A stretch of DNA of 49,776 bases, taken from NCBI GenBank assembly GCA_964494105.1, contig CAZBQI010000006.1, positions 1 to 49,776 on the forward strand. Direction: 5' to 3'. This stretch comes from an uncultured Candidatus Saccharibacteria bacterium. GTDB taxonomy: Bacteria; Patescibacteriota; Saccharimonadia; CAZBQI01. This document shows positions 10,104 through 48,312 of this stretch, one piece after another; the first letter of the stretch is position 1, and each line of letters starts with the position of its first letter. The position numbers and the translations under genes were made by a program. Below the pieces are notes generated by a model. That model did no database searches. It saw only the letters and a program-made list of their open reading frames with translations, and had not been told where the DNA came from.

Positions 10104-11645
10104 CTAGGCCGTGAGTTTAAGGCGATTTATAAGCCAATCGTGGTCGAGTGACGATAAAAACCACCCGGCCTTGGGCCCGGAGTCTTGATTTAGTATAACT
10201 TTATACAGAGTTTGAAAAGCTTCTTTAGGCTCTAGGCCAGCCGTTTCTTTGGCTTCATATATTAGTTCGTGCATCTTCTGGCCGTCTACGCTCTTGGCAG
10301 ACTCTAAACTATCTGCCAGTGCAGTTAGAAATTGAGTTTGCATATCTGTTAAATTAAGTTCTGGCAATGCTTTTTGAACTTCAAACTTTACCTCGTCTGG
10401 GGCATAATTATTTAGCCAATTTGCCACATATTTTAGCTCGTGCTCGACTGATTTTTCGTCCACTGTATACCCTGTGCGTTCAAGTGCAGTAATCGCCTCA
10501 GTGCTGTTGCCTAAGGCAGCCTGGTATACGCTCACCAGATGATTAAACGGAATTGTAGTGATAGAAGACACAGACTTGTCATTAGCAACTTGCGTGGCAA
10601 ACTGGTAGGCTTCTTTAAAATCCGTGTCTTCTTTGTTTTGAACAGCCGCTTTTACCTTGGCGTATTCATCGATTAAGTTCATTAGCCCCAGCCCCGGGTC
10701 AAAGTGAATTTTACGCTCTGGCTTTGAGCGTACAACAAAATAGCGCAGTACTTCAGCTGGCATAATCTCTAGCGCTTGCTCTGGCGTAATCAAGTTACCT
10801 AAAGACGAGCTCATTTTTTTAGTTTCGCCAATTAAGTGAATTGGTTCGTACTGCGCTACCGGCAGCGGCGGTTCTATTTTAAACACTTGTCGGGCGAATT
10901 GAACACCTGTTTGGTAGGCGCTACCGGCCGAGGCCAGCTCGCGTCCAAATGGTTCTACCTGCACACCCAGCACCTTCCAGCGTGCCGGCCAATCTAAGCG
11001 CCAGTTGAGCTTAGCGTGTCCATCTCCGTAGCTTTTACCCTCTATGGTCTTACTAGCCTCGTCCCAGGCTTTAGCAGATGCGTTAAAGTACTTACTATCA
11101 TCGCCCAGCACTTGAATTGGCGTCCAATCGGGTTCGAGCTCACGGTTTGATACTTCTTTAAAGATCTTCCGTATTTCTTCCAAGTTTTCTAACACATCCT
11201 CGAAGCGCTCGATCATTTTGCCAGGAGCGTACAAGTCCTCGTAACTTTTAATTATTGTCGGGTTAATTCCAAGTCTGTGAATGTAGGTTTCGAATTCGCT
11301 ATAGAAGTGATCGGCATAGGTTTTGTGGCAATCCCCTATTGGATCGGGAATTAAGCACACCGGTTGGCCAACGTACTTTTCAAAGCTTTCCGGCAAAAAG
11401 CTGTAGCGTTTACGAAGCGGGTCGAAGTTATCGACAATGTGCAGGTGCTCAGCCTCACGACCGATTTGTTTAAGACCCCATGTGAGCGCATCGACAGTTA
11501 AAATCTCTCGAAAATGACCAATATGGTAACTAGCCGAGGGCGAAATGCCGCTGGAAAGAATTATCTTCCCCTTTGGAATTTTAGCGGTAATCTCAGCTAC
11601 TGCTTGGTCGAGCCAGTATTTGCTAGCTTGTGATTCGTTTGCCAT
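10104..11645 (-). CDS. lysK: Lysine--tRNA ligase, class I
   Basis: SGISPSASYHIGHFRE (HIGH), KLNWRLDWPARW, EPFG, KKMSSS, GPKAGWF. Confidence 0.95.
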   Translation of the reverse strand: MANESQASKYWLDQAVAEITAKIPKGKIILSSGISPSASYHIGHFREILTVDALTWGLKQIGREAEHLHIVDNFDPLRKRYSFLPESFEKYVGQPVCLIPDPIGDCHKTYADHFYSEFETYIHRLGINPTIIKSYEDLYAPGKMIERFEDVLENLEEIRKIFKEVSNRELEPDWTPIQVLGDDSKYFNASAKAWDEASKTIEGKSYGDGHAKLNWRLDWPARWKVLGVQVEPFGRELASAGSAYQTGVQFARQVFKIEPPLPVAQYEPIHLIGETKKMSSSLGNLITPEQALEIMPAEVLRYFVVRSKPERKIHFDPGLGLMNLIDEYAKVKAAVQNKEDTDFKEAYQFATQVANDKSVSSITTIPFNHLVSVYQAALGNSTEAITALERTGYTVDEKSVEHELKYVANWLNNYAPDEVKFEVQKALPELNLTDMQTQFLTALADSLESAKSVDGQKMHELIYEAKETAGLEPKEAFQTLYKVILNQDSGPKAGWFLSSLDHDWLINRLKLTA

Positions 11646-17832: not shown

Positions 17833-20037
17833 TTATCCGAAACGCCGCTCAAGTTCTCTTATAGCTTTTTCAAAAAATGGTGGTATACGTATACCAGTTA
17901 ACTCGCTTCTCCTTAATTGCTCAGGGTAAGCTGCGCTCCAAATTTTATCAAGCGGAATACCTGCATCCTCCCAATACGCCAGTGGATCTTCTTTAAATTC
18001 TTTTATTTTTTTAAAAGCTTCGTCATAGTCTTTGAACCTGTGAACAGTGTTTTTCAACCAAGGCTGGCCAAGAATTCCTTTTTTACTTTTCACCACAGCA
18101 CCGTCAACAAAAATATCCGTCGTATCAGAAACGGTACGGGTAAATTCGCGCAAACCCTTAAAAACGTCTCGCTCATCAACAAAAATTAGCGGACCTGGCA
18201 ATCCGCTAAATAATTTTTGTGCAGTCTGTGACATTAGGTGTTCCATTCCTGTGCCAGTTCCGCCAACATTAAATATTCTAATAGTACTTAAATGCTCCAG
18301 AACTGATTGGCGATGAAACAGTGCCTCTAATTTGCTACCGACTACTGCATGCGGCCCTTCATATACTCCACCTTGCCCAAGTGCCTCCGCATCAATTGCA
18401 TGCCCTATACTAAATAAGCCTTTGGAGCGACCAATAACGTCTGTCTGATACATAATACCAGGCCCATTGCCATGTATTAGACCAACTTTTCCAGAGTCGT
18501 TAAAAAGCCCCCCGAGATTATCAAAAAATCTAACAAGCTGGGGAGCAAACGCTTCCCCTACCTCGGGCTCTGCGCCACCAAACATTGCTACAGTTAATGA
18601 TAAGTCTTCTAGTTCTCTTATTTTATTTGGCCATACCCAAAAGCCACTCCGGTGAAATTCACGAAAGCCACTTTCGCCTTCCCAACCTATATGCACGCCT
18701 GCTCTTGCTAAGCCAGTTAATATCGTGTGGTCTTCTTGAGTCATTGCTAAGGGTCCAAAATCTCGGACTATAAACATCCGCGCATCACTTCGCTCAAATA
18801 ATACCTGCATGTCTCTTGGGGTTAGCCGCTCAGCTATAACAGCTCTGCTCCTCTCACCAGCGTTTGTTAACCCACTAGTAAGCTCTCCTAATTGTTCAAA
18901 ACCGATGGCAATTCCTCTTTCGGCTGCTGCTCGGTCTAAAGCCACTGAAATATTAAAGACTTCGTGATCATGGACGCCAGTTTGGTCCACAGCGCTTATA
19001 CCTCGGTGACTTAGTGCTAACGCAGAGACGCGCTTTTCATCCATCGTCCCAAAGATCGCATCAAGCGAACCTTCCCCGCTAAATAGCTCAAGGGGATTAT
19101 TGCCGTATATATGATGGCGCTGCCTTTCCTCTGGTGTCAAACGGCTAAACTGCGCAAAAACTGGTTCAGCCTGGGGTCGGTTTAATCGATACAGCCTCAA
19201 AGCTACACGCACATCAGACAATGACAGGTTATCCTGTCTATTTACTATCTCGATTTGACGCAATCGGTCTCGAGGATCAATAAATGTACCAGTTCCAGTT
19301 AATCTGTATGGGTCAAAGACTCTGCCACTATTAATTTGCTCGGCATCAATTGGCTCGCCCTCGGCATCAAAAAGCTGGTTCTGCACTTCTACTAAATAAG
19401 GACCGACGGAAAACTGCGCACCAAATATTGAAAATTCGTCAAGCTGATGGTCGGCGCCCGTCTCTCTAGCGGCAGTGTATTTTCTCGCAGCTGACCGCCC
19501 GTGTTTAGCAACGCTCAAAAGAGCATCGGGGTGACCAACTAAGAAACTTTCGTTCAATACAAACTCATAGTCTGCCAAGGGAACCAGAACACTGCCGTCG
19601 TCTCGAATTGTATAAGAGTCTCCTGGAAAAAATAATTTTTTATCAATAGCCTTTTTCACTTCTACCTCATCAACAGGTGTAATTTCGGTTTTATCTAAAA
19701 TTCGGCCAAAGGGTAGCAGACTGCCTTCATGCAGCAACAAATCGTTTTTCCCTGTAGGCAACCCACTAACAACTTCAGTCAGTCGCTCACCCAGTGTTGA
19801 ATAGTGCTGAAGATTCACAGGAACATAGATACCGCCGTCTGCCTGCACTATATCTCTCTGATAATCTTGCTCAACTCCGCTCGCCAACTGCGCTAATGCG
19901 CTGCGTCCTATCAACTGCGCCTGATCACCTAACCTCGCTACCTGTTCGGCACCTAAGGCAGTATCGTCCCAGCGCAGAAAGTACTCAGTGGTAGCAGTAT
20001 CTCTCGCTAAATGGCCATCGGCCGACAACTCACTCAT
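17833..20037 (-). CDS. Large LOG/SLOG-family nucleotide phosphoribohydrolase-like protein with an unrecognised ~480-aa N-terminal region
   Basis: VAMFGG, HGNGPGIM, FHRQ, VGGTGTGME (variant of PGGxGTxxE) and PLIFVD in the C-terminal third. Confidence 0.65.
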   Translation of the reverse strand: MSELSADGHLARDTATTEYFLRWDDTALGAEQVARLGDQAQLIGRSALAQLASGVEQDYQRDIVQADGGIYVPVNLQHYSTLGERLTEVVSGLPTGKNDLLLHEGSLLPFGRILDKTEITPVDEVEVKKAIDKKLFFPGDSYTIRDDGSVLVPLADYEFVLNESFLVGHPDALLSVAKHGRSAARKYTAARETGADHQLDEFSIFGAQFSVGPYLVEVQNQLFDAEGEPIDAEQINSGRVFDPYRLTGTGTFIDPRDRLRQIEIVNRQDNLSLSDVRVALRLYRLNRPQAEPVFAQFSRLTPEERQRHHIYGNNPLELFSGEGSLDAIFGTMDEKRVSALALSHRGISAVDQTGVHDHEVFNISVALDRAAAERGIAIGFEQLGELTSGLTNAGERSRAVIAERLTPRDMQVLFERSDARMFIVRDFGPLAMTQEDHTILTGLARAGVHIGWEGESGFREFHRSGFWVWPNKIRELEDLSLTVAMFGGAEPEVGEAFAPQLVRFFDNLGGLFNDSGKVGLIHGNGPGIMYQTDVIGRSKGLFSIGHAIDAEALGQGGVYEGPHAVVGSKLEALFHRQSVLEHLSTIRIFNVGGTGTGMEHLMSQTAQKLFSGLPGPLIFVDERDVFKGLREFTRTVSDTTDIFVDGAVVKSKKGILGQPWLKNTVHRFKDYDEAFKKIKEFKEDPLAYWEDAGIPLDKIWSAAYPEQLRRSELTGIRIPPFFEKAIRELERRFG

Positions 20038-37760: not shown

Positions 37761-39062
37761 TTAGCGCCGACGCATTTGTACGCGTTTGTAAGCTGCACGA
37801 CTTGTTGTCTTAGACCCTGGACCACGACCACTATTACCGCCGTGCGAGCGTCCAGTTTTTCCGCGTCCACCATATACATCACTTGGGCTTTTACTGTTGC
37901 TGTGTTCGCGTGGTTGAATACGGTGATGTGCGGGAGCTCGTGGATCTACCTGACTCCGGCGTGGCTTGTCCTTGGCTTGACGCCTAAAGGCACGGTTGGG
38001 TGCTGGCATACCAGGCTGTTCTTCAGGTTTATAGCCAGGGGCCAAGTGTGCCATAACTGCTGTCTCGCCTACTCCTTTTGGAATATTTCCAAATGGTTTG
38101 TGCCCTCGGATTTCGACAGTTGCTCCACGCTGTCTTCCTAGTGCTAAGTCTAAAATTTCTGCCACCCTAGGCGGTACATCACCAATTTTTCCGGTAGTAA
38201 TGCCATTATAGCGATCAATCATGTCCTTAACGCTCTCGTAATTGAACTTGGTCGGACCGGCCAATTCTGTTAATTCGGCTATTTCTGTATCACTTAAAAT
38301 ACCCTCATGAGCGCCGAGTCTAACCTTATTACTTATATCTACACCATAACGTTCCCTAACTTGATAAATTAGAGCTCCGGCGGCCAGGAAGCCACGCTGA
38401 CCGGCCAAATATTCATTCTTTTTATCGGGTTTGCCCAAGTTTTGGCCAAGCGCTTCGTCAGAGGCTAAGCCGGTAATAACAATGTCGCCGTCGATTAGTT
38501 CTGGGTGCTTTAATACCTCTTCATGCTCGGTTACAAAGTCGGTTATTTGCGGGTCGTCATCTAGAACATCTTGTTGCTGGTTAGCCATAAAGTCGCGCTG
38601 ATAGCGCTCGAGAAAAGTATCGTGAATCTCAAACTCTACCCCATCCGGGTTAGAGGGTGCCGGTATTTGATCACCAGTTTTGGTATTGTGCGTAAATCCT
38701 ACAGTATGTTCCATTACGCCTGGTGCTGATAAATATTCTGGGGCAATAGCAGCCGAAGCTGGTCCGTTTACGCCAAGTGCGGTAGCCGATGCTGCGCCTG
38801 AAATTTTTCGAGTTCTAGGGCTACCGTACTTTCTAGAGCTAGAGAGTTTTAGCATTAAGCGGGTAAGGCCTTTCGGCTCACCTTCTGCGCGTGCAAAATC
38901 TTCCCGGTTGGGGAATTCTTCCGGACGCAATGGTGATTCAGACGAACGCAGTCTAGTTTCTGGCATACCTTCTGGTAATACCAGTTTGTAGTTTACCGGC
39001 GCGGGAGCGTCTGGTTTTACTTCTACCGGTGCTGGGGCTTCAGGAGTCATTGTTTCTGCCAT
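37761..39062 (-). CDS. Hypothetical protein with a possible divergent OmpA/MotB-like domain and a basic Arg/Gly-rich tail
   Basis: IVITGLASDE...NEYLAGQRG and RGATVEIRG resemble OmpA_C motifs; weak hydrophobic segment near aa 85-105. Confidence 0.5.
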   Translation of the reverse strand: MAETMTPEAPAPVEVKPDAPAPVNYKLVLPEGMPETRLRSSESPLRPEEFPNREDFARAEGEPKGLTRLMLKLSSSRKYGSPRTRKISGAASATALGVNGPASAAIAPEYLSAPGVMEHTVGFTHNTKTGDQIPAPSNPDGVEFEIHDTFLERYQRDFMANQQQDVLDDDPQITDFVTEHEEVLKHPELIDGDIVITGLASDEALGQNLGKPDKKNEYLAGQRGFLAAGALIYQVRERYGVDISNKVRLGAHEGILSDTEIAELTELAGPTKFNYESVKDMIDRYNGITTGKIGDVPPRVAEILDLALGRQRGATVEIRGHKPFGNIPKGVGETAVMAHLAPGYKPEEQPGMPAPNRAFRRQAKDKPRRSQVDPRAPAHHRIQPREHSNSKSPSDVYGGRGKTGRSHGGNSGRGPGSKTTSRAAYKRVQMRRR

Positions 39063-39181: not shown

Positions 39182-42100
39182 TTAAGTCGATTTTAGCGAT
39201 TCAAATACCTGTTCCCAATATTTCTCGTAAGCATTTCGAGTCCTGAACCTATTTTCACCTACAGTTGCCAATACATCGGCAGTATTCAACGCCCTCAAGA
39301 TTCGCAGGACTCTGGCATTATTTCCTAATCGAGAAGCTAATTCGCTAGGTTGCAAATCCTGGTTTGCACCGCCTTTTCCTCTTGTAATATCTGATACTAT
39401 GCCATCGTGTAAAATGGCTGCGGTAACTACCTGGATGTCTTCTTCGCTGAATCCCCATTCAGTCATTCGTTGGCGCGCAATATCAGCACTTGGCACATCG
39501 TGTGAACGATCTCTAGGGACTTTTTCATCTTGACGCCCAGTAGGTTTCCCAAAATCGTGGAAGAAAGTTGCTAATACTGCTAGCCGTCTGTCTGGCTTGT
39601 CTAGTGCTTCGTACTCTGGCAAAGATTTTAATATTTGTACTGCCTCTTTTATATGATTACCAAGTAAAACTCCATTGTGCTGATATCCTTCCTCGCTCGT
39701 TAGATTTTTCCAACCAGGAACTATATCTTTCAGCTCATCTGCATCTGCTCCTTCTTCAATCAATGTAACTGCCTGTCTACCTCTATCTGTAAGCTCCCCT
39801 GTATTTGAAGTTAATTCTGGATTAGATGAATTTGTTTCGGGCGCACTTGATACTACTGCTTCGAGCTCGCCAGTTAATTTAGTTGACGTTGATTCACTAA
39901 AGCCAGCCGCCCAATCAATTATGTAGTCACGTCTAGCTTTTAGTATTCGTTTCAGCAAGGCTCTATCGGCTAGTGGCAGGCGTACACTATCAACCTTTTC
40001 ATCTATTACATCGTCAGTTAGTTTTTCCTTCATTATTTTTGCTTGCGCTTTTATATCAGCCTCAGTTAGACCAGGGTACATCTGTCTCATGCCAAGACCC
40101 AAGCGCTTTTTATCAACGCCAAATTGCACTTCACCGACTACCTCGCTAAATAGTTCTTTACGCCCACCTTGAGCTCGATATAGCAAACCTCCTCCAGCAT
40201 CAACTCGCACTGTTTTACCGTCCACAACCATGGTATTTGCTTCGTTATATACGGCGTCCCAGTTAGCCAACAATGCGTCCATTAAAAAGCCGTCTTTGAT
40301 GTCTGGGGCCGCGCCCGGTACAGCTTCTTCAATAATTTCTGACGCATGCCCATACGAACCATCCACCCACACAACCTGAGTCTTAGGGACGGCCAGCCCT
40401 CCTGCTTCATATAAAAGGTTACCTAGGTGCTCATTCCATATCTGATCTGTAGAATCCAGCCGTTCAAATTTTACGTAATATTTTACCGGCCCATCAACAG
40501 TCGGCACGGTAAACGTACCCCCTTCGTTACTACCCGCCTTCTCGCCTGTTTTTAAGGAATAGTCCCAAACAGCTACCGAGACAGATAAGTTAAGGTCGGC
40601 GCGTGCAGCATCGTACTCTTCGGGCGTAAATATTAGTTCGCCCTGAATGTCATATATTGGTATATAAATTCCATTTTCTAGCACTACTTCTTTGGCCTGA
40701 GCCAAAGTAACATCCTTATCGCGCAATACTATGCCACTTATTTCAGTAGCTGGCATACCACCAAACATTAGGCTGTGGTGGGTAGACCTACCCTTTACAT
40801 GGTTCTGATCTGGCTGCCAGCTTGATTGTTCTCGGTCATACAGTAAATATATTCCAGAACCTTCTGTGACACCTCGACCCGTATAACCACCCGAAAGACT
40901 ACCATCTAATTGTTCTTGTACGGTTTGCCCCTTGGCTAAGAAGTCCGATTCTAGCAAGGTGAAGTCCACGTGGAAAGGATAGCTGTCGTTACTCGCAGAT
41001 TCACCCAATGCTTCACCCGGCAAATTACCGTTAAGGAGAACTAGTTCTAGGAAATCATTACTTGAACCGTGTACCCATTGTCCCGGCCTTAACTCTAGCT
41101 TATCCCGCACTAGAGCACGATTACGCTCGTCGGCGGCAGATTTACTGGTTTCATCACGACTTGTTTCGATGGTTTCTGCTAACCAGTACGCGAATAACAG
41201 TTTTTTCTGCATGCCGTTTAGCTGAGTTAGGGGCAGTTCTGTGAGGCTTTCAACTTCTGCGTCGCTCATGTCCTCTAGGTTGGCAACTCGACGTTTTTCA
41301 TCTACCGAGAGACTCGTAAAGGGAACTGTAGCAAACTCAAAATCATCAGCAAAGTTTTCGACGTTGTTGCCCTCGGGGGTTTGGATTCTTACAATTTCCG
41401 TTACCCGATAGTCACTTTGGGCTTGGGCTAACTGTGAACCCAGCCTGGTTTCTGCAAATAAAAATCTCTGCTTCCAGCTCGGCACAGCCTTTGTGAAAAT
41501 GGCTGTGATTTCGGCAATTCTAGCTTCTACATTGCCGTTGCCGAATATATCTGCAATAATTTTCTCTCTATTTGAGAATAAAGGCGCACCCGGCTCTAAT
41601 AGACCAAGAAAGTCTTCGTTGGCAAAAATCCTTTTAAAGCTTTCGATTTCTGATGGCCTCAGTACTATGCGCTCTAAAATTTGCGTGCTAATATTCGATC
41701 TTCTAAAAGCAGCCCCAAAGCCGTTCTTGGAGTTTTTACCTAATAACTCATTGACTTCTACTATGGCTGCCGCCGATGCTTCGATTTGTTCCGCATTAAC
41801 CTCTGCCCCAAGATTTAATCTAACTATGTGGGCAACGGCAGCAGCATATCTAGGGACAACAGATGGCTTGGTATCTAATAATTTTCCTAGGGATTCCTGC
41901 CATGATGCCCTGTGCATACTAGCCCAAACCAGCATTGGCTCATAAATATATTGTCCGCTCGTTTCTTCTCTGAAAGGAAGATAGTTAATGTAACCATTCT
42001 CTTCTAGTATTGTCTCCAGTTCAGAGAGTATTCGTTCTCGATCACCTTCCATCTCATAAAGCTGCTCTAGCGCCTTGGGGTCAAAAGAGAAATTATATTG

Positions 42101-44965
42101 TCTAAGCTCTTGTACAAACTGCACAACTTCCGGACGCTGGCTGAGCACTCGCATGACATCAATGTCTTCAACTTTAAACCCATAAAAACCCTCACTGACC
42201 TTAATAACAGCATCGATAATGTCTGGATTATCAGCTAACGCTTTAAGCAAGTCGAAGTTGCCACCGGCATCTCCACCAAATCGTTCGAACATTCGTGATT
42301 TGCTTTCTACAAACTGCTGGTACACCGAATACATAGCCTTAAGGTCGTATTTATTATCAACAATTTTACTAAGCGCATTTAGTGATTCTTCAAATTGCTC
42401 ATTATCCTGATTAAGGTTTGAAAAGAATTTATATGCATCTGCCCGAATTTTTTCTTGCACTTTTTCTGGTAAATACCCGAAGTTATCAATCAAGCCTATT
42501 AGAAGTTCTTGGTTACCATAGTATGAATCGACATGGGCCATTCCCAATAATTCACTTGCGTATTCCACGTTGCTAACTGCAACGTTCATCATTTCGCTTC
42601 GGATGTCATCGATACCAAAGAGCTCAGCTAGTTTTAAGGCATCTGGTAGGTGGCCTATATCGAGTGCAGCCTCAACCGCTAATAGCTGAGTGTAGTTATC
42701 TACCTTGAATTCCCCGTTGCGCAGAATCTCATTAAGCGTATCTTCGAAGCGTGGGCTACTACTAGCTAGTTCCTTTAGACTTTCAATGGTGAACTGTCGT
42801 GCTAAAGCCTCATTGAGCTCGGCCTCTGTTAGACCAAGGGTTCTTATTATATTCTCAGGATCACCCGCTTGTGCGTTTTTTAGTTCAATTACGTGCGACG
42901 CCATAATCGCCCGATATAGAGACTCGTCAACTGGTAAAAGTTCGGCAAAAGCCAGCGCTTCTTCAGAACTTCTGCGACTTAGTAATTCACGTACACCGGC
43001 AGCATATATGCGTCTGCATTGCTCTAATGCGTCCTCATGACTATCAGCATTTTCAACAATCCGAAAAGACGCAACTATTAAGGAATTTACCTGGTGTTCA
43101 TGCTCACCGTACCGAAGTGTTCTGCTTGGTAGAATTGACTCCATGAGCGAGAGTAATTTCACCGTATCCTCTGCTTCAAGCAGCTGTCTGGCTACAACCT
43201 CTAGCTCAATTCGGTAATGATAATCGCTAAAGAATGTCTCTACCTTGCGCTGGCCCAAAGCAATAGCGATATTTACAAGTAACTGATCAGCCTGATCAAT
43301 CTCTTTAATTTCGCTAGCAACGTATGCTCCTTTTAGTTGATCTAGAATAGCTTCACTAAGATCATCGTAGCCGAGCTCATGTGCCAGCACCAAAGATCTT
43401 GACGCTTCGGCAATTCTTCTTGCCGGGTATGAGCCTTGTCTCTCTAGAATAGAATGTGTTCCAGATAATATGATACTGCCCACATCAACATCGAATTCTT
43501 GAAGTTGCTTGGCTACTCGATTCAATACCGTCTCGCTAGTATATGTATCCACATTAATGAGCGCATCAATTAGTAGCTCAATGTCTTTCAGATCTGGCGT
43601 TTTATTACCTGCCTTTGCCTGCTCAATGGCTTCATTGGTCCTTTTGCGCAAAACATCTTCCATTACTGCCTTAATTTCATAAGAGTCAATTTCTGACTGC
43701 GTAAGCGTTTCTATAGCACCATGCAAATTCCCTTCACCTATTTGATGATCCGCAATTTTTTTAACTAATCTTGCACGCGCATACTGGCTGTCAGCCGATG
43801 AACGACCAAGCATTCCTATGGCTTTTTCCGTTTGACCTAGCTCAAACATATCGACGCCAAAGTCCGAGCTATCATATGTGGATTCTCCAAATTCAGCCCC
43901 AACCTGTTCTTCTAATTTCTCAATGACAATATCTAACCCAGAACGATCGCCAAGGTCTTTTAAGTGATGTGCGATTTGTTTTAGCTCAAAAATTCTCCAT
44001 CTACCCTCAATTAGTAGCGCTGCATCCATGGCCTCATGCAATGAAGATATGGCTTTATCTTTATCATTTAACTCATCGAATTTACGCGAGGCTGATCGCA
44101 ATACATCACATTGAGCGTCAGCAACACCATGCTCCTTAATAAATGCAACAGCCGTTTCCGTAAGTAATCTTGCCTTATCAGCATTACCTTTTTCTATCTC
44201 GAAATCAGCTATGTCAATCAAATTGCGAGCATAAAGCGAGCTTAAGATGTCGCGCTCCTGTGCTGTTAATTCTGTGCTTAATTGCGTGCCAACAGAGTCT
44301 TCAACATCCTGAAGCAACTCTTGTTCGTCCATATTTCCAGCAATTACACTTAAGTCAACATATAATTGTGACCTAGGATTTTCCTCTGACTCCTCTACTA
44401 AATGATCGTCTAGTGCTTTTAACATGCTCCTAACCGTCGCTGGCTGGAGGTCAACTTGATACATTATAATTTCTTTGGTTGTAGGGTCGGCAGTTTGCAA
44501 TAAGGCTGCTGCTTTTTTGCTTGCCTCGATTGCTTTTCCTTGCTCTGCCAGACCGTTTATTTCAGCTGCTTTCTCAACTACTTCATCTAGTATTCTTTGC
44601 TTTTCTTGTCGCTTTGCAATTACTGTTGCTTTAGCTTCACTAATTTCTTCTTTACTAAATCTATCGCCCCACCCAAGTTCTTTTCTTACATCAGGGTCGT
44701 CATCGGCAAGGTCATCAATAGGTGCAACTATTGATTCATCGCTATCAGCGCCACTTACAGCACCTCCAACAGCGACATCTCCAACCCCAACTTCTACTTC
44801 ACTAAGCAAAGCAGTATCATCGCGATCTATGACATCACCAGTTATTCCCTCAACTGCTCCTGTCGGGGGAATATCGGCTACTGATCCATCAATTTTGGCT
44901 GGATCACTTGCAGCTACGTCTGCGTCGCCGTAAGTTACATCTTCGTCTATTGGTGAAAAGGGCAT
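39182..44965 (-). CDS. 1927-aa multidomain protein: acidic N-terminus, TPR-like helices, ART-like domain, HipA/CtkA/PI3K-like kinase, HD domain
   Basis: WVHGSS...LVLLNGNLP; GSNEGG...YYVK...NE...DALLANWD...N...RVDAGG; HNG...NH...HDFGKP...H...H; uninterrupted ORF. Confidence 0.7.
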   Translation of the reverse strand: MPFSPIDEDVTYGDADVAASDPAKIDGSVADIPPTGAVEGITGDVIDRDDTALLSEVEVGVGDVAVGGAVSGADSDESIVAPIDDLADDDPDVRKELGWGDRFSKEEISEAKATVIAKRQEKQRILDEVVEKAAEINGLAEQGKAIEASKKAAALLQTADPTTKEIIMYQVDLQPATVRSMLKALDDHLVEESEENPRSQLYVDLSVIAGNMDEQELLQDVEDSVGTQLSTELTAQERDILSSLYARNLIDIADFEIEKGNADKARLLTETAVAFIKEHGVADAQCDVLRSASRKFDELNDKDKAISSLHEAMDAALLIEGRWRIFELKQIAHHLKDLGDRSGLDIVIEKLEEQVGAEFGESTYDSSDFGVDMFELGQTEKAIGMLGRSSADSQYARARLVKKIADHQIGEGNLHGAIETLTQSEIDSYEIKAVMEDVLRKRTNEAIEQAKAGNKTPDLKDIELLIDALINVDTYTSETVLNRVAKQLQEFDVDVGSIILSGTHSILERQGSYPARRIAEASRSLVLAHELGYDDLSEAILDQLKGAYVASEIKEIDQADQLLVNIAIALGQRKVETFFSDYHYRIELEVVARQLLEAEDTVKLLSLMESILPSRTLRYGEHEHQVNSLIVASFRIVENADSHEDALEQCRRIYAAGVRELLSRRSSEEALAFAELLPVDESLYRAIMASHVIELKNAQAGDPENIIRTLGLTEAELNEALARQFTIESLKELASSSPRFEDTLNEILRNGEFKVDNYTQLLAVEAALDIGHLPDALKLAELFGIDDIRSEMMNVAVSNVEYASELLGMAHVDSYYGNQELLIGLIDNFGYLPEKVQEKIRADAYKFFSNLNQDNEQFEESLNALSKIVDNKYDLKAMYSVYQQFVESKSRMFERFGGDAGGNFDLLKALADNPDIIDAVIKVSEGFYGFKVEDIDVMRVLSQRPEVVQFVQELRQYNFSFDPKALEQLYEMEGDRERILSELETILEENGYINYLPFREETSGQYIYEPMLVWASMHRASWQESLGKLLDTKPSVVPRYAAAVAHIVRLNLGAEVNAEQIEASAAAIVEVNELLGKNSKNGFGAAFRRSNISTQILERIVLRPSEIESFKRIFANEDFLGLLEPGAPLFSNREKIIADIFGNGNVEARIAEITAIFTKAVPSWKQRFLFAETRLGSQLAQAQSDYRVTEIVRIQTPEGNNVENFADDFEFATVPFTSLSVDEKRRVANLEDMSDAEVESLTELPLTQLNGMQKKLLFAYWLAETIETSRDETSKSAADERNRALVRDKLELRPGQWVHGSSNDFLELVLLNGNLPGEALGESASNDSYPFHVDFTLLESDFLAKGQTVQEQLDGSLSGGYTGRGVTEGSGIYLLYDREQSSWQPDQNHVKGRSTHHSLMFGGMPATEISGIVLRDKDVTLAQAKEVVLENGIYIPIYDIQGELIFTPEEYDAARADLNLSVSVAVWDYSLKTGEKAGSNEGGTFTVPTVDGPVKYYVKFERLDSTDQIWNEHLGNLLYEAGGLAVPKTQVVWVDGSYGHASEIIEEAVPGAAPDIKDGFLMDALLANWDAVYNEANTMVVDGKTVRVDAGGGLLYRAQGGRKELFSEVVGEVQFGVDKKRLGLGMRQMYPGLTEADIKAQAKIMKEKLTDDVIDEKVDSVRLPLADRALLKRILKARRDYIIDWAAGFSESTSTKLTGELEAVVSSAPETNSSNPELTSNTGELTDRGRQAVTLIEEGADADELKDIVPGWKNLTSEEGYQHNGVLLGNHIKEAVQILKSLPEYEALDKPDRRLAVLATFFHDFGKPTGRQDEKVPRDRSHDVPSADIARQRMTEWGFSEEDIQVVTAAILHDGIVSDITRGKGGANQDLQPSELASRLGNNARVLRILRALNTADVLATVGENRFRTRNAYEKYWEQVFESLKST

Positions 44966-45056
44966 TTTTTGTTTCTCTTATGTTTACTCTTATAAATTTA
45001 GCGCTTTACCTCTAAAAACACAAACAGATTTGGTAGAAATAGTTATACTATTTAAA

Positions 45057-46367
45057 GTGGATGAATTAACACAAAAAGCAGTGTCTGTTTTAAAAGCGAA
45101 TGATCGTGGGAGTTACACTGTGCCCTCACCAAAACTCTACCCACACCAATGGCTGTGGGATTCGTGCTTTATCGCTATTGGTCTGCGTCATCTTGACGCA
45201 CGTCGGGCTGCTACAGAGATTGAATCGCTGTTCCGTGGCCAGTGGCAAAACGGCATGCTCCCACACATTACCCTCCGTGAGGATTCCAGTTACTGGGCCG
45301 GGGCTGGCTTTTGGCAGTCCGATGTCTCGCCAGTAGCACCTAAAGACGTTGCTACCTCCGGCATCACCCAGCCACCGGTGGTTGCAATTGCTGCGGAAAA
45401 AGTTGCCCAAAAGCTGCCAGAGGCCGAGGCCCACGTGTTTTTAAAACAGCTTTTCCCTAAACTTCTTGCCTACCATAACTGGCTGTACCGCGACCGAGAT
45501 CCTGAAAGTAGCGGTCTGATTGTGCTAGTTAATGCCTGGGAATGCGGTTTTGATAACACCCCGCCGTGGATGCGTACTATTCGTTGGATGTCGCCCTTAT
45601 GGATATCAACTCTACTAAAAATGCGCCTGGATGGTATTCTTACTAAGCGAAGGCAAGATACTAAAACCGTTCCACCGGAACAACGCATTACCAATATTGA
45701 AGCACTGAAACTAGCCCACCTCGCCTACCTCCACCGCCAGAACGGTTACGACTCACGAAGAACCATTGCGACCAGCCGCTATTGCGTTGAGGATGTTGGG
45801 TTCAATTCAATCCTGATTGCCGCCAATAAAGCGCTCGTGCGCATTGCCAATGAGATTTCCGAAGACATTCCTAGCGATCTGAGCTATCGTTTTACCCAAA
45901 CCGAGAAAGCCTTGGAGCAGCTATGGGATGAAAATAGCAGCATGTATTGTTCACGTAATTTCAGCAGCAAGAAGCTTCTACGCCAGCCAACTATATCGGG
46001 GTTACTCCCGCTTTTTAGTGGTGCCATTTCAAAAGAACGAGCTGATAAGCTCGTTCTTACTCTTTCCAATAAAGAACAGTTTGGTGCCAACTTCCCCATT
46101 CCAACTGTACCTACATCTTCACGATATTTTAAAGAGAAATGCTACTGGCAAGGACCCGCCTGGATAAATGCCAATTGGATGATCACACAAGGCCTGAAAG
46201 AGTACGGACATATTGAAAAAACCAATGAAATTAGGCAAAAGAGCCTTCAGCTAGTGAACAACAACGGCTGTTATGAGTACTTTTCCGCACTTAGCGGTAA
46301 GCCACTTGGCGCTAGCGACTTTAGCTGGACTGCAGCACTTATAATTGACTTAATGAAGTCCGACTAG
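45057..46367 (+). CDS. GH63-type glycoside hydrolase (glucosylglycerate/mannosylglycerate hydrolase-like)
   Basis: YPHQWLWDSCF, QWQNGMLPH, WECGFDNTP, YWQGPAWINANW, FSWTAAL; start placed at GTG 45057, 7 nt after TATACT. Confidence 0.88.
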   Translation: MDELTQKAVSVLKANDRGSYTVPSPKLYPHQWLWDSCFIAIGLRHLDARRAATEIESLFRGQWQNGMLPHITLREDSSYWAGAGFWQSDVSPVAPKDVATSGITQPPVVAIAAEKVAQKLPEAEAHVFLKQLFPKLLAYHNWLYRDRDPESSGLIVLVNAWECGFDNTPPWMRTIRWMSPLWISTLLKMRLDGILTKRRQDTKTVPPEQRITNIEALKLAHLAYLHRQNGYDSRRTIATSRYCVEDVGFNSILIAANKALVRIANEISEDIPSDLSYRFTQTEKALEQLWDENSSMYCSRNFSSKKLLRQPTISGLLPLFSGAISKERADKLVLTLSNKEQFGANFPIPTVPTSSRYFKEKCYWQGPAWINANWMITQGLKEYGHIEKTNEIRQKSLQLVNNNGCYEYFSALSGKPLGASDFSWTAALIIDLMKSD

Positions 46368-46385: not shown

Positions 46386-46946
46386 TTAAGCAACGGTAGC
46401 ATTTGCCGGCTCGAAACTATCATTTTGAACAACAAGCAGATCCAAATCACTAGTAGTAGGGTGTATTTTGGCAACAACGCTGTGATTGCCAATAAGCTCA
46501 AATATTATAGCCGTTTCACCGAGTTCAATTTGCCCATCACTATTAAGCAAGTCTGCGTTTATGTCACCTTCACCAAGCGCACTGTATAAATGCTTAAGAA
46601 ATCGATGAGTATCCTCGTTTCTTGCTAATTGACCTTCTTTTATTCCGTCGTCGCTTGGAAAATGCACAACGCCAATGCCAGTTTGACCATTGAATTCGCC
46701 TGTGCCAACATGCTCAACTACTTGCCGTACCATACTTAATGCATATTCGGGCTCATGATAATACGCTCGGGCAAGAGCGCCCGATACGACATCAATTAGA
46801 CGTACTAAACCATCCCGAACCTCATCAGATTCAGTACTCAACAAGAACTCATCGAGCTCTACGTGCATCGAATCACCAATAACACTGGCATTCCACTCAA
46901 CAAAATGCTCATGATAATTTATAGCTGGCTGCAGATTTTCTGGCAT
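46386..46946 (-). CDS. Hypothetical acidic protein
   Basis: 186-aa ORF with SD AGAGGA and a consensus promoter; no family recognised. Confidence 0.75.
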   Translation of the reverse strand: MPENLQPAINYHEHFVEWNASVIGDSMHVELDEFLLSTESDEVRDGLVRLIDVVSGALARAYYHEPEYALSMVRQVVEHVGTGEFNGQTGIGVVHFPSDDGIKEGQLARNEDTHRFLKHLYSALGEGDINADLLNSDGQIELGETAIIFELIGNHSVVAKIHPTTSDLDLLVVQNDSFEPANATVA

Positions 46947-47040: not shown

Positions 47041-48276
47041 TTAACTTAGTGATCGTATAAATTTCAAATCATCACAAATCAGCCTAGGCATTAAAAAGTG
47101 CTCCTTCACATAGTCATGACCATATTTACCCATTGCTTTGGCTTTGGCCGGGTTGTTTACAAGCTCTACCATGTATTTAGCGGTTTCTTCGACATTTTTA
47201 ACCAAATAGCCACTTTTTCCGTGCTTAATTTGTTCGGGAATTCCACCAATATTACTGCCAACCACCGGGGTACCAGCCCATAACGCTTCCGTTACAGTTA
47301 ATCCGAAACCCTCACGCAGGGATTTTTGGATAACAACGTTCGCCTGTGTCTGAAAAGCGTGTACTTCGTGGGCATAGGCCCGACCGGCAATAATAAAAAC
47401 ATCCTTGTGCCCAGCTGTTGCTTCATTAATTGCCTGTAACATATGGGCAGCGTCTCTAGGCGTATCAGCCGGTAACGCTCCAACTAGCGCCAACTGCAGA
47501 TTAGGAATTTCTTGCTGGGCCAGCTTCCACGCCATTATTACACCCAGTGGATCTTTCCACTGATCAAAGCGTGATATCTGCACGGCCAAGGGCTTTGAGG
47601 TATCTATACCAAAGCTCGCTACAATCTGTTGGCATACCTTAGCCGAAAGTTTTTGGTTCTTCGAGCTGAGCGGATCAATTGCCACCGGTATTATAGCGGT
47701 ATTTTTGTGTTCCAAGCCGGGAATAGCGTATTTTTTTAACGTATATATTAGCCCGTCATACGGCCTAAGCAGTTCACTAAATTTTGCCGTTAAATCACGA
47801 GTTGCATGCTTACTATCGATATGACAACGCCAAATCCATTTTGACTTTTGATTCTCACTCAAAAAAGATAACGCAGCGGCAGGCTGAGGATCGTGGATAA
47901 AGATATAATCGTAGGGTGCATCAGCTAAATCTTTGGCTATCTGCCGATTAACACTTAGGTATAAACTCCACTGCGATTCAGATATTTTGCTCTCGTCTCC
48001 CTGTAATCCATCGTGTATTCGCTTTGTAGTCGCAAAGAATTCCGGACTGGCATTTAATACTTTCCAGTCCGCTTTTAATCCCAAATCGCGAAGAAGAGCT
48101 ACCTCGGAGCGTAGGATTTCATCAACCCCTCCGCCGTGCGCAATAGAATTAATATGTAAAATTCGTTTGCCCTTAAGTTGCTTGGCTAGCTCTTTTACCT
48201 CTGTATATAGTTTTGCACCTATAATTTCCTGATAGTTATCGAAGCGTTTTGGTTTTAGCGTAACTGTTTTAAGCAT
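47041..48276 (-). CDS. treT: Trehalose synthase TreT-like glycosyltransferase (GT4)
   Basis: HINSIAHGGGVDEIL, IHDPQP, WRCHID, SRFDQWKD, QKSLREGFGLTVTEALW. Confidence 0.88.
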   Translation of the reverse strand: MLKTVTLKPKRFDNYQEIIGAKLYTEVKELAKQLKGKRILHINSIAHGGGVDEILRSEVALLRDLGLKADWKVLNASPEFFATTKRIHDGLQGDESKISESQWSLYLSVNRQIAKDLADAPYDYIFIHDPQPAAALSFLSENQKSKWIWRCHIDSKHATRDLTAKFSELLRPYDGLIYTLKKYAIPGLEHKNTAIIPVAIDPLSSKNQKLSAKVCQQIVASFGIDTSKPLAVQISRFDQWKDPLGVIMAWKLAQQEIPNLQLALVGALPADTPRDAAHMLQAINEATAGHKDVFIIAGRAYAHEVHAFQTQANVVIQKSLREGFGLTVTEALWAGTPVVGSNIGGIPEQIKHGKSGYLVKNVEETAKYMVELVNNPAKAKAMGKYGHDYVKEHFLMPRLICDDLKFIRSLS

Positions 48277-48284
48277 ACACTTCA

Positions 48285-48312
48285 GTATCAAGTATTATGT
48301 ATCACGTATCAA
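48285..48312. repeat. Four tandem heptads upstream of treT
   Basis: GTATCAA GTATTAT GTATCAC GTATCAA. Confidence 0.7.

Follow-up and report, generated by a model that had tools for sequence, protein, structure and literature searches.

A giant Saccharibacteria protein with a predicted ADP-ribosyltransferase–kinase pair and an HD domain: a candidate multi-enzyme effector

Saccharibacteria, in common with other Patescibacteria, live on host bacteria to which they are attached, and to our knowledge almost nothing is known of the proteins that they use on those hosts. What might such a bacterium do with a single chain of 1927 residues in which three enzymes appear to be combined? The question is raised by a gene on the reverse strand of contig CAZBQI010000006.1 (assembly GCA_964494105.1), from an uncultured Candidatus Saccharibacteria bacterium. 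The stretch analysed, referred to below as the window, comprises positions 1 to 49,776 of this contig (49,776 nucleotides). A preliminary description, made from the letters alone, had proposed that the giant protein carries an ADP-ribosyltransferase (ART)-like module, a HipA/CtkA-like kinase and an HD hydrolase. We show here that its conserved C-terminal third consists of a rigid, linker-less pair of domains, D1 and D2, followed by the HD domain on a flexible linker. Tentatively, we read the protein as an effector with several enzymes whose target is another bacterial cell, most plausibly the one on which the episymbiont lives. The gene is laid out as follows.

39182–44965, minus strand: whole gene, 1927 codons plus stop; an uninterrupted open reading frame (ORF) with an ATG start, encoding 1927 aa
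44666–44965, minus strand: N-terminal tail, aa 1–100, acidic and rich in Gly, Pro and Ser; delimited by composition, matched by 0 of 159 relatives
41789–44665, minus strand: aa 101–1059, lineage-specific region; no library match, 5–6 phmmer matches for aa 801–1100
41129–41788, minus strand: D0, aa ~1060–1279, conserved in the family and directly N-terminal of D1; ~100 relatives
40583–41128, minus strand: D1, aa 1280–1461, predicted ART fold; AlphaFold model, Foldseek and conservation
39896–40582, minus strand: D2, aa 1462–1690, predicted HipA/CtkA-like kinase; model, Foldseek and conservation
39761–39895, minus strand: variable D2–HD linker, aa 1691–1735, acidic and rich in Gly, Pro and Ser; composition over aa 1691–1760, unconserved in the family alignment
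39185–39760, minus strand: HD phosphohydrolase domain, aa ~1736–1927; Pfam HD PF01966 and conservation

Does D1 adopt the fold of an ART? Its AlphaFold model, built from an alignment of 15 sequences, has a predicted local distance difference test score (pLDDT) of 83.5 and a predicted template-modelling score (pTM) of 0.83. When the model was compared with the PDB by Foldseek, the top 50 or so matches were exclusively ARTs or ART-fold proteins. Three had E < 1e-3: yeast Tpt1 (7yw4, 4.7e-4), Thermus DarT (7omv, 5.4e-4) and M. tuberculosis DarT (7yk3, 8.5e-4). These leaders were followed by other Tpt1/KptA structures, Scabin, CC0527 and the cholera and pertussis toxins. Among the viral structures of BFVD, phage Tpt1- and DarT-like proteins were matched with similar scores. 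The proposed ART-like module is thus borne out at the level of the predicted fold.

In an ART, an NAD+-binding His or Arg is expected where strand 1 ends, and D1 has H1299 there (model strand 18–23); 111 of 114 D1 sequences keep the His. E1408, the candidate for the catalytic Glu at the start of strand 5, immediately precedes that strand (model strand 130–135); this position is Glu in 97 of the 114, Ala in 7 and Asp in 4. Near-invariant residues specific to the family are N1282, G1313, E1318, D1327, D1334, R1378 (kept in 102/114) and H1397 (105/114). The preliminary description had likened the segment WVHGSS…L..VLLNG.LP to the HGT…I…GL start of PARP/Tpt1/Arr-type ARTs. An hhalign comparison with E. 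coli KptA pairs just these segments (WVHGSS…LLNGNL with HGT…GL) and nothing else, at a non-significant probability of 1.9%. No Pfam or NCBIfam ART family is matched at E ≤ 1, and a profile search of PDB sequences with D1 returned nothing.

How close, then, does D1 stand to its best structural matches, Tpt1/KptA and DarT of the H-Y-E / H-H-h ART clade? It shares with KptA the strand-1-end His, the helix that follows and a G-N-L turn as in HGT…GL, and with Tpt1 and DarT an acidic residue, E1408, before strand 5. On the other hand, it has no significant sequence similarity to either, and keeps invariant residues of its own (N1282, G1313, D1334, R1378 and H1397). It lacks the N-terminal RNA-binding lobe of Tpt1/KptA, with its Arg-His-Arg-Arg tetrad; the D0 that stands upstream has no detectable relative in Pfam or the PDB. 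There is no Pfam DarT match and no adjacent DarG macrodomain partner, and no partner of any kind is conserved in 16 related loci. We conclude from the model that D1 is a predicted new family among the ARTs, which belongs to neither Tpt1 nor DarT although their side of the superfamily is the closest to it.

The model of D2 is of higher quality (pLDDT 88.4, pTM 0.87). The first seven Foldseek ranks are all chains of H. pylori CtkA (E from 4e-7 to 8e-6, TMq 0.59–0.67), the match to 3akl having E = 4e-7 and TMq 0.65–0.67. HipA (3dnt/3tpt/3dnu) occupies ranks 8, 11, 25 and 31 (E from 4e-4 to 2e-3, TMq up to 0.58). After HipA come a bacterial Ser/Thr kinase (7vkc/7wcf) and then eukaryotic-type kinases, which superpose poorly. 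Aminoacyl-tRNA synthetases are the proteins that HipA phosphorylates, and CtkA is a kinase that is secreted. With both (CtkA 3AKL/3AKK/3AKJ; HipA 3DNT, 3TPT), D2 shares the compact kinase fold and retains the Gly-rich loop (G1478-S-N-x-G), the ATP-binding Lys (K1499), the helix-C Glu (E1512), the catalytic Asp…Asn loop (D1563, N1568-W-D1570, N1577) and the DxG metal-binding motif (R1587-x-D1589-x-G). In 140 sequences, K1499, E1512 and D1570 are each kept in 139, D1563 and D1589 in all 140, and N1577 in 135.

The differences from HipA are nevertheless considerable. The catalytic loop of D2 reads N-W-D-x6-N, while that of HipA is D-x-H-x-K-N. D2 lacks the N-terminal domain of HipA, no HipB-like antitoxin was found nearby or in related loci, and D2 is a module within proteins of 1000–4600 aa where HipA is a stand-alone toxin. 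The D2 of the window matches neither of the HipA Pfam models (HipA_C, HipA_2) at E ≤ 1. Homologues of D2 do so: the copies in a metagenomic protein, P0111, match HipA_C (67.5 bits, cut-off 30.5), HipA_2 and APH, and P0120, P0122 and P0134 have weak HipA-type Pfam matches, all such matches being confined to the N-lobe. By hhalign the similarity of D2 to E. coli HipA is non-significant (5% probability). K1499 is paired with the IIKLP segment (~178–182), which we take to hold the ATP-binding Lys, K181, of HipA; the helix-C segments, including E1512, are paired as well. The model and the motifs together lead us to regard D2 as a putative HipA/CtkA-like kinase, in agreement with what had been proposed.

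The HD domain is the only part of the chain that sequence libraries recognize. Pfam HD (PF01966) matches aa 1770–1853 with 29.7 bits, above the gathering cut-off of 22 (E = 8.3e-7), and the H…HD…D metal ligands are present. Weaker matches are to HDIG, to the GlnD-type HD (NF001265, E = 0.0056) and, in PADLOC, to Cas3-HD (E = 2.5e-5). H1763, H1771, H1803, D1804, H1822, D1859 and D1897 are kept in 33 of 33 sequences. The HD domain is joined to D2 through the variable, acidic, Gly/Pro/Ser-rich linker; between D1 and D2 there is no linker, and the junction is conserved. Other searches of the PDB, by sequence or profile, with D0, D1, D2 and HD gave nothing meaningful, and matches to L14 and to GST were discarded as noise.

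Every motif quoted in the preliminary description was recovered where it had been placed in the ORF: WVHGSS at 1297–1302, GSNEGG at 1478–1483, YYVK at 1496–1499, NE at 1511–1512, DALLANWD…N at 1563–1577 and RVDAGG at 1587–1592. The C-terminal H…HD…H…H pattern was likewise found (H1763, H1771, H1803–D1804, H1822; also D1854). These motifs are not products of chance, for their columns are conserved at 85–100% in 33–140 homologues. In short, the predicted structures support both the ART and the kinase folds. Members of the family retain the putative catalytic residues of D1, D2 and HD, so that all three are probably active enzymes.

How widely is this architecture distributed? A word-indexed search with the whole protein had given one weak relative, a problem that was solved by using the C-terminal 648 aa as the query. 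An exhaustive phmmer search with this segment (aa 1280–1927) retrieved 3228 proteins at E ≤ 1e-3, 131 of them at E ≤ 1e-30. Module boundaries and counts of relatives were taken from the best 159 of the 3228. D1 and D2 occur together in at least 112 representatives, with a median length of 1297 aa; HD is also present in 27 of these, and in two D1+D2 representatives it is N-terminal instead of C-terminal. D0 is kept in about 100 of the 159, with W1164 and S1269–R1270 invariant. There is no gap between D0 and D1, whose N1282 is likewise invariant, and D0 has no relative in Pfam or the PDB. The architecture had not been recognised in the preliminary description; it is no one-off, for at least 112 representatives share D0-D1-D2, with HD as an optional addition.

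The C-terminal module is 40–56% identical between classes of Patescibacteria. A genome scan for D2, with one genome per species, found relatives at 40–52% identity, and all of these have the D1-D2 architecture. The sources of D1-D2 relatives are metagenome-assembled genomes (MAGs) of Patescibacteria (Saccharibacteria, Saccharimonadales, Uhrbacteria, Peribacteria) or bins labelled otherwise, and one family member in nr is named Ca. Levybacteria. The named genomes that hold close relatives are all Patescibacteria. Patescibacteria-type D0-D1-D2 genes also stand on contigs labelled archaeon, Planctomycetia, Gammaproteobacteria and delta proteobacterium (L082, L085, L086, L089, L090, L092); such labels are probably errors of binning or labelling. 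D1 was seen in Patescibacteria-type proteins and nowhere else, always fused to D0 and D2. It is absent from the 80 viral loci that were fetched, and a viral scan with a single D1 sequence found no relative.

A Peribacteria MAG carries a D0-D1-D2 gene of 1400 aa followed, in head-to-tail arrangement, by another of 1277 aa (L095:2680-6879 and L095:6905-10735), which indicates a local expansion of the family by paralogues. The superfamilies to which the domains belong are known; the families of D1 and D2 are absent from Pfam, NCBIfam, PADLOC and PHROG as searched. We found no description of the D0-D1-D2(-HD) architecture, or of its restriction to Patescibacteria, in the literature searched. We classify the giant protein among the multi-enzyme conflict proteins, a kind already known.

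If D1 is confined in this way, where else does D2 occur? Outside Patescibacteria, the D2 relatives retrieved are parts of giant proteins with many domains, which are encoded by phages, in prophage-like loci or by other bacteria. D2 alone, at 30–39% identity, was found in at least 558 stretches of IMG/VR viral contigs, and the ORFs that bear it reach up to 4640 aa, with 1502 aa as the median. Cultured phages are included: Pseudomonas phage Dolphis (gp117, 1222 aa, annotated as an ADP-ribosyltransferase) and Gordonia phages. The genomes of Streptomyces, Dehalococcoidia, Endozoicomonas, Gastranaerophilales and others also hold D2. Among 23 D2-only proteins, Pfam finds ADPrib_exo_Tox in six, DRAT in four, ART (PF01129) in two, ART-PolyVal in one, Phage_Mu_F in three and NUDIX in two. 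An ART, from families unrelated to D1, is thus present in about 11 of the 23. P0134 and P0127 have an R-S-E-type ART immediately before D2 on the N-terminal side, which repeats the order of D1-D2. Because the D2 giants carry unrelated ARTs in about half of cases, sometimes adjacent, the pair of ART and D2-kinase appears, from its sequence associations, to be a recurrent conflict module.

These giants take varied forms. P0111 (3416 aa, a metagenomic representative) has five copies of D2 together with an ADPrib_exo_Tox ART. In a Dehalococcoidia MAG, a stop-free frame of at least 6855 aa (L154:2-20566) spans the fetched locus and holds two adjacent D2 copies. D2 and HD are fused, without D1, in ORFs of 1024–3152 aa from Gastranaerophilales/Vampirovibrio-like MAGs and from gut MAGs (L133, L143, L144, L151, L160, L161), the remainder of these ORFs being almost without Pfam match; in Gastranaerophilales-like genomes such fusions measure 2300–3150 aa. 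Endozoicomonas atrinae has D2 homologues on at least four contigs (Endozoicomonas loci L145, L146, L147, L155, L156, L157), which suggests multiple D2-bearing proteins or elements in these animal symbionts.

Polyvalent proteins belong to phages, prophages or conjugative elements and often carry MuF or another anchor domain. According to a published proposal, the multi-domain ones fused to MuF travel inside the virion and act as injected effectors (PMC5512222, PMC9503650), and ARTs are their commonest modifying domain (PMC9503650). The giant protein resembles them in packing several effector-type enzyme domains, three in this case, into one chain (PMC5512222), and homologues of D2 are fused to MuF, NUDIX, ART-PolyVal and other ARTs. 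It differs in that the gene of the window is chromosomal, in housekeeping surroundings, without MuF, primase, ParB-type or other mobile-element anchor. A kinase has been described among polyvalent proteins, a truncated Ser/Thr/Tyr type with an H…D motif and no C-lobe, from Verrucomicrobia and Bacteroidetes (PMC5512222). We considered whether D2 might be this polyvalent-protein kinase of Iyer et al. 2017 and rejected the identity: that family is of the H…D type without C-lobe, whereas D2 has N-W-D.

What role might the giant protein play? The new evidence on this point is limited to the D2 relatives in giant phage and prophage proteins, some of them MuF-fused, together with ARTs. Because the combination of ART and kinase is otherwise an attacker's tool against bacteria, we favour, tentatively as stated above, an effector directed at another bacterial cell. 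An ART–kinase pair that would serve phages as an injected weapon against bacterial physiology would have been recruited by a Saccharibacteria-like episymbiont, its most likely use there being to disable the host bacterium or to manipulate it. D1 would use NAD+ to ADP-ribosylate its target. Protein and nucleic acid (RNA or DNA) are equally likely as that target, because it is on nucleic acids that Tpt1 and DarT, the proteins nearest in fold, act. D2 would use ATP to phosphorylate Ser/Thr of a target protein, by analogy with HipA and CtkA, and HD would hydrolyse a phosphoester, whether that of a nucleotide, of a nucleic acid or of a modification of the phospho or nucleotidyl type. The variable N-terminal region may supply delivery or target specificity. 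A candidate for export is a conjugation-derived type IV secretion system, of a kind widespread in Patescibacteria (PMC12102498). Tandem paralogues, such as those of the Peribacteria MAG, are more in character for an effector or conflict gene than for one with a housekeeping role.

What does the remainder of the chain reveal? The first 100 residues are acidic, as had been noted (26% Asp+Glu, net charge −22), and contain 26% Gly+Pro+Ser. Phmmer windows over aa 1–800 match none of the 159 relatives, and those over aa 801–1100 match five or six. From aa 1 to 1760 there is no match in Pfam, NCBIfam, PADLOC or PHROG even at E ≤ 1, and a PDB sequence search with the giant protein gave no match. The partly TPR-like scaffold that had been suggested found no support: no Pfam TPR family matches at E ≤ 1, TPR_19 is matched by one of 29 family members, and BLASTP detects no internal repeats. 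We take the protein to be soluble, as no transmembrane segment is predicted, the maximum Kyte-Doolittle value over any 19-residue window being 1.33.

The surroundings of the gene are those of a chromosome. The window encodes SecA, PBP2, a class-I lysyl-tRNA synthetase (LysRS), ParA, ParB, L21, a LytR-family protein, signal peptidase, TreT and an MGH1-like glycosidase. The nearest named proteins to its SecA are from Ca. Saccharimonadales, at 60–63% identity. The giant gene has a GC content of 43.6% and a GC content at third codon positions of 35.6%, and its neighbours are similar; an island of horizontal transfer was rejected, the base composition being native. Apart from the giant gene, the window holds no second match to D1, D2 or HD. 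Scans for promoters and terminators gave counts equal to those of shuffled background, and Rfam and tRNA scans were empty.

The immediate neighbours are orf433, which has no known domain, ParA and the MGH1-like glycoside hydrolase. In none of 16 related loci do orf433, ParAB, the MGH1-like glycoside hydrolase or TreT adjoin the homologues, and on three further homologue contigs the neighbours are unrelated to those of the window. No conserved partner, antitoxin or immunity gene was found next to family members in these 16 loci and three contigs, in keeping with the earlier remark that no antitoxin neighbour was visible. Orf433 (37761–39062, minus strand) has the orientation of the giant gene and follows it downstream after 119 nt. 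Its 433 aa begin with a Pro-rich region and end in an extremely basic tail rich in Arg, Lys, Gly and Ser; it is a singleton in a collection of 15 billion proteins and has no Pfam, PADLOC or PHROG match. As an operon partner, antitoxin or immunity gene it was rejected because it adjoins no homologue of the giant gene in those loci.

On the other side, between 45030 and 48291, TreT trehalose synthase (47041–48291, minus strand) and the MGH1-like glycoside hydrolase (45030–46367, plus strand) flank an unannotated ORF of 186 aa (46386–46946, minus strand). The three may form a small compatible-solute or sugar module beside the giant gene. Elsewhere in the window, the lysyl-tRNA synthetase (10104–11645, minus strand) is of the class-I type, with 1irx as its best PDB match; most bacteria use the class II enzyme. 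An ORF of 734 aa (17833–20037, minus strand) has no PDB sequence match at E ≤ 1e-3.

Several of these observations weigh against a host-directed effector. The giant protein has no signal peptide or transmembrane segment, as the preliminary description had said, and no recognisable secretion or trafficking domain. No secretion-system genes occur among the annotatable ORFs of the window, where the neighbours are SecA, PBP2, LysRS, ParAB and L21. Native composition, without a conserved immunity or antitoxin neighbour, is unusual for a toxin that its producer must survive. Polymorphic toxins have a conserved N-terminal trafficking region, a variable C-terminal toxin and an adjacent immunity gene; the giant protein is the reverse, with a variable N-terminus, a conserved C-terminus and no conserved neighbour. 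Finally, the Foldseek scores of D1 are modest (E ~5e-4, TM-scores 0.4–0.56), and 7 of the 114 D1 domains have Ala in place of E1408.

Might the protein instead defend the cell that makes it? In a single-protein form of anti-phage abortive infection, the long, fast-evolving N-terminal region would act as a sensor that releases three effectors: a DarT-like ART acting on nucleic acid, a HipA-like kinase stopping translation and an HD nuclease or phosphohydrolase. Large defence proteins are usually a variable sensor joined to a conserved effector, and the giant protein fits this pattern. An autoinhibited enzyme needs no immunity gene, which matches the missing conserved partner. DarT, a known defence toxin, is among the nearest folds of D1, HD has its weak Cas3-HD matches in PADLOC (E = 2.5e-5), the giant protein looks cytoplasmic and unsecreted, and the tandem paralogues of L095 would not be out of place. 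However, PADLOC models match none of D1, D2 and the N-terminus. There is no defence island, only housekeeping neighbours that differ among genomes, and the D2 of MuF-fused phage proteins stands on the attacker's side. We hold a defensive role to be doubtful, and less likely than the effector.

Unlikely, in our estimation, is an endogenous regulator that would reversibly modify the cell's own proteins, with ART and kinase as writers, HD as eraser and the N-terminal region docking to lineage-specific partners. GlnD carries an HD uridylyl-removing domain, and the HD of the giant protein has a weak likeness to it (NF001265, E = 0.0056). The chromosomal housekeeping setting, the native composition, the missing immunity gene and the identity of 40–56% in the C-terminal module across Patescibacteria classes would also suit such a role. 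But HD is found in only 27 of the 112 representatives, which makes an obligatory cycle of writer and eraser improbable. The N-terminus differs among all retrieved relatives and paralogues occur in tandem, features atypical of a core regulator; and the D2 relatives retrieved from outside Patescibacteria are the giants described above, from phages, prophage-like loci and various other bacteria.

Might the domains act in succession upon one substrate? D2 would add a phosphate that a Tpt1-like D1 caps with ADP-ribose, or would phosphorylate the ADP-ribose mark, which would then resist erasers of the macrodomain type; the optional HD would trim the product until a phosphoribosyl group or some other end state is left, by a logic resembling that of SidE. 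Tpt1, the best fold match of D1, transfers ADP-ribose onto phosphate. Such coupling would explain both the linker-less D1-D2 junction, conserved in 112 representatives, and the recurrence of ARTs from unrelated families in about half of the phage and prophage D2 proteins, sometimes immediately beside D2; D2 and HD, moreover, are fused outside Patescibacteria too. The SidE family combines a mono-ART and a phosphodiesterase in one chain, and the Legionella protein, as one large effector with ART and phosphoesterase, is a precedent for sequential chemistry by analogy only. That family is not known to be related in sequence or fold to the giant protein; it has an R-S-E ART, a different phosphodiesterase fold and no known kinase. 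If coupling were true, it would represent a new compound modification used by phages and episymbiotic bacteria. We nevertheless rate it as quite improbable: no modifying domain is commoner in polyvalent proteins than the ART (PMC9503650), so that co-occurrence may be chance packing, the phage proteins differ in how their domains are ordered and spaced, and the hhalign comparison of D1 with KptA is non-significant.

If the giant protein is indeed an effector against the host cell, Saccharibacteria and other Patescibacteria would possess a candidate effector family that is large, conserved and seemingly intact in its catalytic residues, with three activities open to assay. Two predicted enzyme families not yet catalogued are added: D1, so far seen only in Patescibacteria-type proteins, and D2, with thousands of members and common in giant phage proteins. 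The recurrent pairing of an ART with D2, in phages and Patescibacteria alike, raises the question of whether ADP-ribosylation may be mechanistically coupled to phosphorylation.

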